Source: Escherichia coli
GTDB lineage: Bacteria > Pseudomonadota > Gammaproteobacteria > Enterobacterales > Enterobacteriaceae
Direction: 5' to 3' (one strand)
DNA: 3,487 nt
NCBI RefSeq assembly: GCF_003334315.1
Contig: NZ_QOWR01000104.1
Position 1 is the stretch's first letter. Each line of letters begins with the position of its first letter. The notes beneath the pieces are model-generated. The model had not been told where the DNA came from. It ran no database searches and saw only the letters and a list, made by a program, of their open reading frames with translations. Shown piece after piece: positions 1 to 3,487 of this stretch. The position numbers were made by a program, and so were the translations under genes.

Positions 1-77
1 CTAGTCTAAAAACTAGTATTAAGACTATCACTAACTTAAGTGATACCAACTGTCTGGAGATTCAGGGGGCCAGTCTA
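1..77 (-). mobile_element. IS2-like (IS3 family) terminal inverted repeat, left end, partial; the element continues beyond the window start
   Basis: The reverse complement of 1..77 reads TAGACTGGCCCCCTGAATCTCCAGACA...TATCACTTAA...GTGATAGTCTTAATACTAGTTTTTAGACTAG. From memory this matches the IS2 end that precedes the insC/orfA start (conserved blocks GGCCCC, CCAGACA, TATCACTTAA, internal TAGACT repeat). A few central bases differ from my recalled copy, so it may be a variant or my recall may be imperfect. The terminal base is at about 77, and the element body lies to the left on the minus strand. Confidence 0.7.
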
Positions 78-490
78 GCTTCATTGATTAACGTCAACCA
101 CTCACCGCTGGCGTAGTTTCGTACGTGAGAGGTATCGCGTAATGCTTCTACCGTCTGTAACCAGATGTCGCGCACTGGGTGACCCGGAGACATTACGTCC
201 ATCACAATCAGCCTACCGCCAGGTTTCAATATCCTATTCACTTCTCGCAGTGCTGCACCAACATCATGCCAGTGATGGGCAGAATAACGGCTGATAACAA
301 TATCAAATGCGTTATCGGCAAATGGCAGACTTTCGGCATATCCCTGGCGGGTGGTGATATTTTTCAGTTGCCGGGCTTCGGCAGCTTGTGCCACGACATC
401 CAGCATGTGGGCAGATAAGTCATACGCCACCACCGCGCTCACGTTTTGCGCAGCGCCAAACGTTGGTCTGCCCTGTGGCAGACCTGACAT
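62..490 (-). CDS. yafE: Class I SAM-dependent methyltransferase (YafE-like), 3'-truncated by the IS2 insertion; likely a pseudogene
   Basis: The 142-aa ORF carries methyltransferase motifs: VVAYDLS (post-I acidic residue), FDIVIS (motif II) and LKPGGRLIV (motif III). The last ~4 codons (RLAP-stop) and the TGA stop at 62..64 are encoded inside the IS2 terminal repeat, so the native C-terminus is missing. My recollection is that intact YafE is about 207 aa. ATG at 488..490. Confidence 0.65.
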   Translation of the reverse strand: MSGLPQGRPTFGAAQNVSAVVAYDLSAHMLDVVAQAAEARQLKNITTRQGYAESLPFADNAFDIVISRYSAHHWHDVGAALREVNRILKPGGRLIVMDVMSPGHPVRDIWLQTVEALRDTSHVRNYASGEWLTLINEARLAP

Positions 491-493
491 ACC

Positions 494-1345
<852 letters not shown>

Positions 1346-1350
1346 CTACT

Positions 1351-1379
1351 GTTATAGGGATTTTAGCTCACTCTTTCAA
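1351..1379 (-). promoter_or_regulatory. Candidate sigma70 promoter for yafD(-yafE): -35 TTGAAA, 17-bp spacer, -10 TATAAC
   Basis: On the minus strand, TTGAAA is the complement of 1374..1379 and TATAAC the complement of 1351..1356, with a 17-nt spacer; each hexamer is a 5/6 match to consensus. The predicted transcription start is near 1343, giving a leader of about 50–70 nt to the yafD start. Confidence 0.35.
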
Positions 1380-1400
1380 CGAGCAATTGTATATTGTTAT

Positions 1401-1416
1401 GTAAGCAAGTGCTTAC
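1401..1416. promoter_or_regulatory. Perfect 16-bp palindrome GTAAGCA-AG-TGCTTAC; candidate transcription-factor operator
   Basis: Seven-bp arms that are exact reverse complements, with a 2-bp spacer. It is centred about 65 bp upstream of the predicted yafD transcription start, a typical position for an activator or LysR-type recognition site. Confidence 0.3.
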
Positions 1417-1464
1417 ACCGGTCAGAATTTTGCTCATTATGGAGAACATTAAATCGCATGACAT

Positions 1465-1479
1465 ATCACGCATCCTGAT
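1465..1479. promoter_or_regulatory. LysR-type box candidate ATC-N9-GAT (T-N11-A motif)
   Basis: ATCACGCATCCTGAT is an interrupted dyad that fits the generic LysR-family T-N11-A / ATC-N9-GAT pattern. It sits about 55 bp upstream of the yafC ATG in the divergent yafC–yafD intergenic region. Confidence 0.3.
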
Positions 1480-1534
1480 GGTTTAATGACAAATAAATTC
1501 AAAATATCTCTTCTATTTTGCAACAGGAGCAAAA

Positions 1535-2449
1535 ATGAAAGCCACGTCGGAAGAACTCGCCATTTTTGTTTCGGTCGTCGAAAGCGGCAGCTTTAGCCGG
1601 GCAGCGGAACAATTAGGGCAAGCAAACTCAGCGGTAAGCCGGGCGGTGAAAAAGCTGGAGATGAAACTTGGCGTTAGCCTGCTTAATCGGACCACGCGAC
1701 AACTTAGCCTGACGGAAGAAGGCGAGCGTTATTTTCGTCGCGTACAGTCAATTTTGCAGGAGATGGCAGCGGCAGAATCAGAAATTATGGAGACGCGTAA
1801 TACACCGCGTGGACTGTTACGGATCGATGCCGCAACTCCAGTGGTGCTGCACTTTCTGATGCCGTTAATTAAGCCTTTCCGTGAACGCTATCCGGAAGTC
1901 ACTTTGTCGCTAGTCTCCTCCGAAACGATTATTAATTTGATCGAAAGAAAAGTGGATGTCGCGATACGCGCTGGTACGTTAACGGATTCCAGCTTACGTG
2001 CCAGGCCGTTATTTAACAGTTATCGAAAAATTATCGCCTCCCCCGATTATATTTCCCGCTACGGGAAGCCAGAAACGATCGACGATTTAAAGCAACATAT
2101 TTGCCTGGGATTCACTGAACCCGCTTCCCTCAATACCTGGCCGATAGCCCGTAGCGATGGACAATTACATGAGGTGAAGTACGGTTTGTCATCCAATAGT
2201 GGGGAAACACTGAAACAGCTTTGCCTGAGTGGCAACGGGATTGCGTGTTTGTCCGACTACATGATCGACAAAGAAATCGCTCGCGGAGAATTGGTGGAGT
2301 TAATGGCAGATAAAGTGTTGCCAGTGGAAATGCCATTCAGTGCCGTCTATTACAGCGACCGTGCGGTAAGTACGCGCATCCGGGCTTTTATCGATTTCCT
2401 TAGCGAGCATGTAAAAACAGCTCCCGGAGGAGCTGTCAGAGAGGCTTAA
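1535..2449 (+). CDS. yafC: LysR-family transcriptional regulator (YafC-like)
   Basis: 304-aa ORF with an N-terminal helix-turn-helix typical of LysR regulators ([23 protein letters not shown]) and a C-terminal co-inducer domain. AGGAG Shine-Dalgarno at 1525..1529, 5 nt before the ATG at 1535. Divergent from yafD. Confidence 0.9.
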
Positions 2450-3249
2450 TCCCATTCAGGAGCCAGACCTTCCGGGCTAACCAGGCGGTCGTTGCAATCC
2501 AGTGCGACGATCGCTTTTTTATCTTCGGCATCAAGCTGTAAATTTTGTGCCTTAAGATTACTTTCCAGGTTTTTACGTTTAGTAGAAGAAGGAATTACTG
2601 AGTAACCTTCCCCCATAGCCCACGCCAGAATCACTTGTGCCGGAGTCGCATTGTGTTTAGCTGCGATACGAGCAATAACCTCATCTTTCAGGGCCTTACC
2701 ATACGCCAGCGTCATATAGGAAGTAATATGGATGCCGTGCTGTTTAGCCCAGGCAACCACTTTACGGTTTTGCAGATAAGGAGAGAGTTCAATCTGGTTA
2801 GTAGCGATGTTTTCAGCACCAACAGCAGCAATCGCTTTTTCCATCAACGGGATCGTGAAGTTGGAAATACCGATCTCACGCGTCAGCCCTTGTTTTTTGG
2901 CTTCCAGCAGCGCCTGCATAAACTCTTCAACAGAGACTTCATCGTTTGGTGACGGCCAGTGGATTAGCGTCAGATCAACATAATCGGTACGCAATTTTTG
3001 CAGGCTCTCTTTCAGACTTGGGATCAATTTGTCTTTGCTGAGATTTTCAATCCAGATTTTAGTGGTGATGTAGAGTTCATGACGTGGCACGCCACTTTCT
3101 GCAATCGCCTGACCTACTGCGGCTTCGTTATCATAGATTTGTGCGGTATCAATTGCGCGATAACCAAGTTCAAGCGCCGTTATCACAGATGAAATAACAA
3201 CGTCGTCTTTCAGACGGAAAGTACCTAAACCAAATGCAGGGATAGCCAT
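2446..3249 (-). CDS. dkgB: Aldo-keto reductase, 2,5-diketo-D-gluconate reductase B-like
   Basis: 267-aa ORF with aldo-keto reductase catalytic residues in the expected context: Asp/Tyr in [10 protein letters not shown], Lys in ITTKIW, His in LIHWP. Shine-Dalgarno AAGAGG about 8 nt upstream of the ATG (complement of 3247..3249). Matches my recollection of E. coli DkgB (YafB). Confidence 0.9.
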
Positions 3250-3288
3250 AATATGCCTCTTTTAATGCTATTTTCGTTAACTGAGGTG

Positions 3289-3317
3289 ATTATGGGCTTC
3301 AGACTGTTGAGGAAAAA
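3289..3317 (-). promoter_or_regulatory. Possible dkgB promoter (-10 CATAAT; weak -35)
   Basis: On the minus strand, CATAAT (complement of 3289..3294) lies about 40 nt upstream of the dkgB ATG. The -35 at a 17-bp spacing (TTTTTC) is poor, so this is tentative. Confidence 0.2.
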
Positions 3318-3371
3318 GAGCGTAAAATGCAGAGGATTTTTGCGATTCTGGCAATAATAGATATACAGACG

Positions 3372-3399
3372 AAAAAAAACCTCGAGCGTTAACTCGAGG
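3372..3399 (-). terminator. Rho-independent terminator downstream of tRNA-Asp (end of the rRNA/tRNA transcription unit)
   Basis: On the minus strand: 7-bp GC-rich stem CCTCGAG / CTCGAGG with a 6-nt loop, followed directly by eight T residues (complement of the A-run at 3372..3379). Confidence 0.75.
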
Positions 3400-3411
3400 C
3401 TTCTTAATAAG

Positions 3412-3487
3412 TGGCGGAACGGACGGGACTCGAACCCGCGACCCCCTGCGTGACAGGCAGGTATTCTAACCGACTGAACTACCGCTC
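3412..3487 (-). tRNA. aspU: tRNA-Asp (anticodon GTC), encoded CCA end; 5'-terminal nucleotide lies just outside the window
   Basis: The reverse complement of 3412..3487 matches the E. coli tRNA-Asp sequence as I recall it, lacking only the first G: GAGCGGTAGTTCAGTCGGTTAGAATACCTGCCTGTCACGCAGGGGGTCGCGGGTTCGAGTCCCGTCCGTTCCGCCA. The anticodon loop CTGTCAC contains GTC. The gene symbol assumes the copy that trails an rRNA operon, as in K-12. Confidence 0.9.

Follow-up and report, generated by a model that had tools for sequence, protein, structure and literature searches.

The yafC–dkgB locus and its surroundings

The stretch of DNA analysed (3,487 nt, called the window here) corresponds to the yafE'-yafD-yafC-dkgB-aspU region of Escherichia coli. 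From position 78 to 3487, it is identical to K-12 MG1655 except for one base, and K-12 coordinates are obtained as 232,416 minus the window position. The yafC coding sequence (1535..2449, plus strand) encodes a LysR-type regulator of 304 amino acids with the Pfam domains HTH_1 and LysR_substrate, and dkgB (2446..3249, minus strand) encodes an aldo-keto reductase (AKR) of 267 amino acids with the Aldo_ket_red domain. In YafC, the LysR_substrate domain extends to residue 293 and is followed by a non-conserved tail (residues 294-304). A YafC scan with one genome per species gave 80 Enterobacteriaceae loci, about 70 of which have yafC and dkgB in convergent orientation. Open reading frames, RefSeq annotation, Pfam domains and these orthologues all indicate that two genuine protein-coding genes are arranged tail to tail.

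Both reading frames end in the same TTAA tetramer at 2446..2449. The sequence at 2441..2450 is gaggcTTAAt, in which TAA at 2447..2449 is the yafC stop on the plus strand and the complement of 2446..2448 is the TAA stop of dkgB on the minus strand. This overlap, reported in the first-pass annotation of the window, was confirmed from the sequence, the open reading frames and the K-12 annotation, since dkgB (229,167..229,970) and yafC (229,967..230,881) share an identical 4 nt in NC_000913.3. It also stands that no intergenic DNA is left, and the 3' UTR of each gene is therefore necessarily antisense to its partner. Two opposed stops can be held by TTAA, TTAG, CTAA and CTAG and by no other tetramer, overlaps in prokaryotes are most often 4 bp long, and 58 convergent overlaps are found in E. 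coli (PMC2174442), so that a 4-nt convergent overlap is statistically unremarkable. Of 5,426 complete E. coli genomes, 5,416 carry the 141-nt region around the junction at 95% identity or more.

At the yafE side, an IS2-family element contributes its terminal 77 nt (positions 1..77), with about 88-90% identity to E. coli IS2 copies; matching copies are annotated as "IS3-like element IS2 family transposase". The element abuts yafE at 77/78 and truncates it, leaving an ORF at 62..490 instead of 207 codons, and this junction was found in none of the 5,426 complete E. coli genomes. The gene is intact in NC_000913.3 and is given as a pseudogene "missing N-terminus" in the PGAP annotation of one MG1655 record. 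The start codon of yafE (ATG, 490..488, minus strand) and yafD (494..1294, minus strand) lie 3 nt apart, which suggests that yafDE is a tightly coupled operon divergent from yafC.

At the other side, the tRNA-Asp gene aspU, at the end of the rrnH operon, is directly followed by a strong terminator on the minus strand (3374..3405, U-run 3373..3366) with a 14-bp stem and eight U (−18.5 kcal/mol, z −4.8). The dkgB start is about 120 nt downstream, so any transcription continuing past the end of rrnH would pass into dkgB and on to the yafC junction. A reporter placed in the dkgB locus was reportedly silenced, and its authors blamed the neighbouring rRNA transcription (PMC4191405).

Terminator scan of the window

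Strict terminator sites were defined by a stem of 8 or more contiguous pairs, a minimum of 5 G-C pairs, and at least 5 T in 8. Exactly three hairpin and T-run sites were obtained in the window, all on the sense strand, and each follows the end of a gene (dkgB, yafC or tRNA-Asp) at a distance of at most 70 nt. The hairpins after dkgB and yafC are named hairpin 1 and hairpin 2, respectively. Dinucleotide shuffles gave 0.11 strict sites per window and 0.0016 per 100-nt zone on one strand, and no shuffled window yielded a site of the quality of hairpin 2. An Rfam scan had the tRNA as the sole match, so that neither a known sRNA nor a known riboswitch lies at the junction. The first-pass annotation had argued that the shared stops leave no room for a terminator of either gene. 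This did not hold, since a hairpin with a U-run is found past both stops, inside the coding sequence of the partner gene.

The hairpin downstream of dkgB

Hairpin 1 (2413..2437, minus strand) was characterized by folding, as an inverted repeat and by comparison of loci. It begins 8 nt past the dkgB stop and sits within yafC codons 293-301. The stem pairs 2437..2429 with 2424..2416 through eight Watson–Crick pairs, a perfect 8-nt inverted repeat, and a closing G.U pair, 9 bp in all. On the minus strand it reads GACAGCUCC-UCCG-GGAGCUGUU, followed by UUUACAU, with a tetraloop of the UNCG type and a short U-run of 4-5 U at 2416..2413 (UUUUACAU). Folding in a 46-nt context gave −18.4 kcal/mol and z = −4.8 on this strand. 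The dkgB stop is thus followed by a stable, G+C-rich hairpin and a sense-strand U-run. On the plus strand, the hairpin is followed by CAGAGAGGC, without a U-run, and a classical symmetric bidirectional terminator was rejected on this ground. The consensus terminator scanner missed hairpin 1, probably because greedy stem extension through the G.U pair shortened the tail, and the site was recovered by folding and the custom scan.

The same hairpin is found in other genera. The motif CAGCTCC-N4-GGAGCTG, with an A-run on its upstream (plus-strand) side, is present in Escherichia, Citrobacter, Enterobacter, Leclercia, Lelliottia, Yokenella and Klebsiella, and in the Enterobacteriaceae loci carrying it, the hairpin always lies over the final yafC codons. 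Its core pairs are about 99% paired across loci. Two pairs show double compensatory changes, with U-A replaced by C-G in five sequences and C-G by U-A in one, and the observed covariation score was reached by 0 of 500 shuffles. The loop is UNCG on the dkgB-sense strand in 43 of 52 loci (UUCG in 22, UCCG in 13, UGCG in 7 and UACG in 1), a signature specific to that strand. In Kosakonia and Trabulsiella, a different hairpin is located in the spacer, again with its U-run on the dkgB strand.

The protein encoded across the hairpin does not show the same constancy. The conserved core of YafC ends in ...FIDFLSEH, and a 1-nt indel in the A-run makes the yafC frame through the hairpin vary by genus, with tails such as KQLPKEL* in Leclercia versus KTAPGGAV(REA)*. 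Since the frame varies and the tail is beyond the Pfam domain, the constraint at hairpin 1 is on the nucleic acid and not on the peptide.

Four loci lack dkgB and have yafC facing tRNA-Asp directly (Salmonella enterica subsp. diarizonae and arizonae, Enterobacter sp. ENT03 and C. freundii M-21). The inverted repeat is decayed in all four, and in the two Salmonella subspecies the length of the yafC ORF is kept despite this decay. At these loci, yafC converges with tRNA-Asp, and the rrn terminator hairpin region is common to both. Taken together, the covariation, the UNCG loop, the variable frame and the loss with dkgB show a hairpin that is conserved independently of coding, with compensatory changes. 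From these sequence comparisons, hairpin 1 is very probably the intrinsic terminator of dkgB.

The hairpin downstream of yafC

Hairpin 2 (2483..2520, plus strand), a candidate intrinsic terminator of yafC, was studied by the terminator scan, folding and synonymous recoding. It begins 33 nt past the yafC stop and is located within dkgB codons 243-256. The 14-bp stem pairs 2483..2496 with 2503..2516, including three G.U pairs, around the loop AUCCAG, and the T-run is at 2515..2520 (U6). With a folding energy of −21.6 kcal/mol and z = −5.1, a stable hairpin and a sense-strand U-run are present after the yafC stop as well. When the same 17-residue peptide was encoded by synonymous codons, 1.2% of the recodings folded equally well on the plus strand and 40% on the minus strand. 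Hairpin 2 folds well on the plus strand only, a specificity that fits the three G.U pairs, which become C.A mismatches on the other strand. Within Escherichia, three of four differences in the stem keep the pairing.

The conservation of hairpin 2 could be explained by coding constraint. The stem lies within a conserved AKR motif, the U-run corresponds to two AAA lysine codons, and in the alignment of 61 sequences, covariation did not exceed what column composition alone gives (paired cells: 82.1% observed, 81.8% in shuffles). Among 48 loci whose spacers measure −4 to 34 nt, 31 have a terminator-like site, compared with 0 of the 9 whose spacers measure 35-47 nt (Kosakonia, Trabulsiella and one Enterobacter); over the loci, the correlation between spacer length and hairpin-2 quality is not significant (Spearman 0.21, p = 0.11). 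All Kosakonia and Trabulsiella loci and some Citrobacter either lack the hairpin or have it without the T-run, and no other canonical yafC terminator was found in those loci. On this mixed evidence, hairpin 2 is slightly more likely than not to be the functional yafC terminator in E. coli.

One variant falls in this stem. At position 2508, the window has A where K-12 MG1655 has G, so that DkgB carries Val in place of Ala248 and hairpin 2 has U-A where K-12 has a U.G pair. The collection contains no genome with 100% identity over 2395..2535, and the variant at 2508 is therefore rare, or possibly an error.

Origin of the stop codon overlap

The overlap of both stops is restricted to the Escherichia loci and three others (two Citrobacter strains and Kluyvera cryocrescens). 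Every sampled Escherichia locus has TTAA, except for one with TTAG (L006). In the remaining loci, yafC and dkgB are separated by 6-39 nt, with a few at 46-124 nt. When the junctions are aligned, about 24 nt are cleanly missing from Escherichia compared with Citrobacter, Enterobacter, Leclercia, Yokenella and Klebsiella. As read from this alignment, the Escherichia overlap is a derived state, made by deletion of a spacer of about 24 nt, which most other Enterobacteriaceae retain. The deletion took the spacer together with the ancestral yafC stop in the Escherichia ancestor, and the yafC frame is now extended by one codon into a TAA formed by the complement of the dkgB stop and the next A. The dkgB terminator already overlapped the yafC tail before this deletion.

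The loss of the spacer also accounts for the short distance between the dkgB stop and hairpin 1, which is 8 nt in Escherichia versus 25-43 nt in most other genera with the hairpin. A few lineages with short spacers (Buttiauxella, Cedecea, Pseudenterobacter and relatives) have distances of 8-16 nt. A ribosome terminating at a stop codon represses terminators placed a few bp past it (PMC4824070), and this position, like the short U-run, counts against hairpin 1 as a terminator.

Proposed transcript ends

The convergent yafC and dkgB genes probably keep their terminators, nested in each other's coding ends. From the sequence, conservation and compensatory changes of the hairpins and from the loss with dkgB, we infer termination in vivo and the positions of the 3' ends as follows. 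The dkgB mRNA would end at the U-run of hairpin 1, at about 2410-2416, and the DNA of this hairpin encodes, on the other strand, the dispensable last codons of YafC. Transcripts of yafC most likely pass hairpin 1, because it has no U-run on the yafC strand, and would end at hairpin 2, at about 2517-2523. If both terminators are used, the two transcripts are predicted to be complementary at their 3' ends over about 110 nt (2410..2523, both strands), with dkgB RNA reaching about 35 nt antisense into yafC, and yafC RNA about 75 nt into dkgB. The first-pass annotation had each transcript extending antisense into the other gene; the overlap itself is retained here, and its extent is not open-ended, since the predicted terminators would confine it to this zone.

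This prediction agrees with published RNA-seq data. The dkgB-yafC pair is one of 165 convergent excludons of MG1655 in Table 1 of ExcludonFinder (NAR 2025), which were called where RNA-seq coverage overlapped in half or more of 58 MG1655 samples; for 146 of these pairs, the terminators are also predicted to overlap (PMC12288877). Validation of dsRNA by p19 was not feasible for convergent pairs (PMC12288877). Mapped 3' ends of dkgB or yafC were not found, by gene names and predicted coordinates, in the Term-seq data of Adams 2021, in TERMITe 2025 or in SMRT-Cappable-seq 2018, which is uninformative because both genes are weakly expressed.

Alternative explanations

The main competing view of the yafC end is that hairpin 1 is the sole real terminator. 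Hairpin 2 would then not be a real terminator and would be a by-product of the codons of the AKR motif, and yafC would end by Rho, or by pausing or collision near hairpin 1, acting as a non-canonical bidirectional element. The lack of covariation in hairpin 2 and its T-run of two lysine codons speak for this view, as do Kosakonia, Trabulsiella and some Citrobacter, where neither hairpin 2 nor another canonical yafC terminator was found. In addition, bidirectional terminators between convergent genes of E. coli are reported to differ from intrinsic ones and to require a stem-loop and polymerase collisions (bioRxiv 10.1101/2022.10.23.513370). Against it, no more than 1.2% of synonymous recodings reach the stability of hairpin 2, an effect confined to the yafC-sense strand; window shuffles gave no site of such quality, and three of the four stem changes in Escherichia keep the pairing. 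This view is possible, though doubtful. The end of YafC could also have been misplaced, with an earlier stop, a true intergenic terminator and no overlap. The last 11 residues are outside the Pfam domain and the peptide is not conserved, but there is no in-frame stop before 2447, so that translation must reach the TAA. This candidate was rejected as extremely improbable.

Another alternative, close to the first-pass annotation, is that neither gene has an effective terminator, with deep mutual read-through and antagonism between YafC and DkgB by transcriptional interference or by RNase III cleavage of the duplex, as in a functional excludon. It is in keeping with the coverage overlap in at least half of the 58 MG1655 samples (PMC12288877), with the position of hairpin 1 just 8 nt off the dkgB stop, a distance at which termination can be suppressed by ribosomes (PMC4824070), and with a validated precedent in E. 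coli, the convergent mscL-arfA pair with RNase III (PMC10070815). Nevertheless, the overlap is bounded by two strong and correctly placed hairpin and U-run sites, and overlapping coverage is expected anyway because the coding sequences overlap and the terminators are nested. Moreover, reciprocal-expression data for dkgB-yafC were not found, and both genes are weakly expressed and lack curated Term-seq 3' ends. A functional excludon of this kind is therefore considered unlikely, and nested terminators remain the preferred reading.

With nested terminators, the regulatory consequence of the overlap is probably small. Mutual antisense regulation of yafC and dkgB, as such, is quite unlikely. No pair-specific regulatory experiment for dkgB-yafC was found in the literature, and YafC has been validated by ChIP-exo as a DNA-binding regulator, with no link to dkgB in the text of that report. 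A conditional form may also be conceived, in which Escherichia hairpin 1, being within the footprint of the terminating ribosome, would make dkgB termination leaky and dependent on translation, and so connect an aldehyde reductase to a LysR regulator as a conditional excludon. Antisense transcription into yafC would then rise with dkgB translation, and maybe also with read-through from rrnH. This is very unlikely.

Practical and evolutionary meaning

A stop-stop overlap does not imply that terminators are absent, as they can be held in the codons of the neighbouring gene. Engineering at the yafC-dkgB junction consequently alters both genes. In the strain used for the published ChIP-exo of YafC, yafC has a C-terminal 8-myc tag, and any insertion at the yafC stop inevitably destroys the dkgB stop and separates dkgB from its terminator. 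The standard Keio deletion design keeps the last six codons and no more. By this design, deletion of yafC would remove half of the dkgB terminator, and deletion of dkgB would remove the candidate yafC terminator. Phenotypes ascribed to yafC or dkgB as single genes may therefore include effects of the neighbour. The locus is also a tidy evolutionary example of a terminator hairpin that is translated as a disposable protein tail, in a frame that differs among genera.

Comparison with known systems

Overlaps of this class were analysed in 2007 (PMC2174442) and the dkgB-yafC pair was catalogued in 2025 (PMC12288877), so the arrangement is already known and ordinary. It resembles the 4-bp convergent overlaps described by Lillo and Krakauer (2007) in its TTAA tetramer, its modal length and the fact that terminators are forced into the coding sequence of the partner (PMC2174442). 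Among the 58 convergent overlaps of E. coli in that work, 19 had one terminator and 2 had a terminator for both genes (PMC2174442), and dkgB-yafC seems to belong to the latter, rarer subset.

The similarity to the convergent excludons is direct, since the pair is listed among them and its predicted terminators fit the concept of overlapping terminators embedded in the transcription unit of the neighbour (PMC12288877). That list was made from RNA-seq coverage, whereas the predicted dkgB-yafC terminators described here are located in coding sequence and not in 3' UTRs. The mscL-arfA pair also consists of convergent genes with complementary 3' ends, but there antisense regulation and RNase III processing were shown by experiment (PMC10070815), while dkgB-yafC is known from sequence and RNA-seq coverage. 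Finally, the bidirectional terminators seen by SEnd-seq (Ju et al. 2019), to the extent that they are described in bioRxiv 10.1101/2022.10.23.513370, likewise place a stem-loop at a convergent boundary. Compared with that description, dkgB-yafC differs in having two separate hairpins, each with its U-run on one strand.
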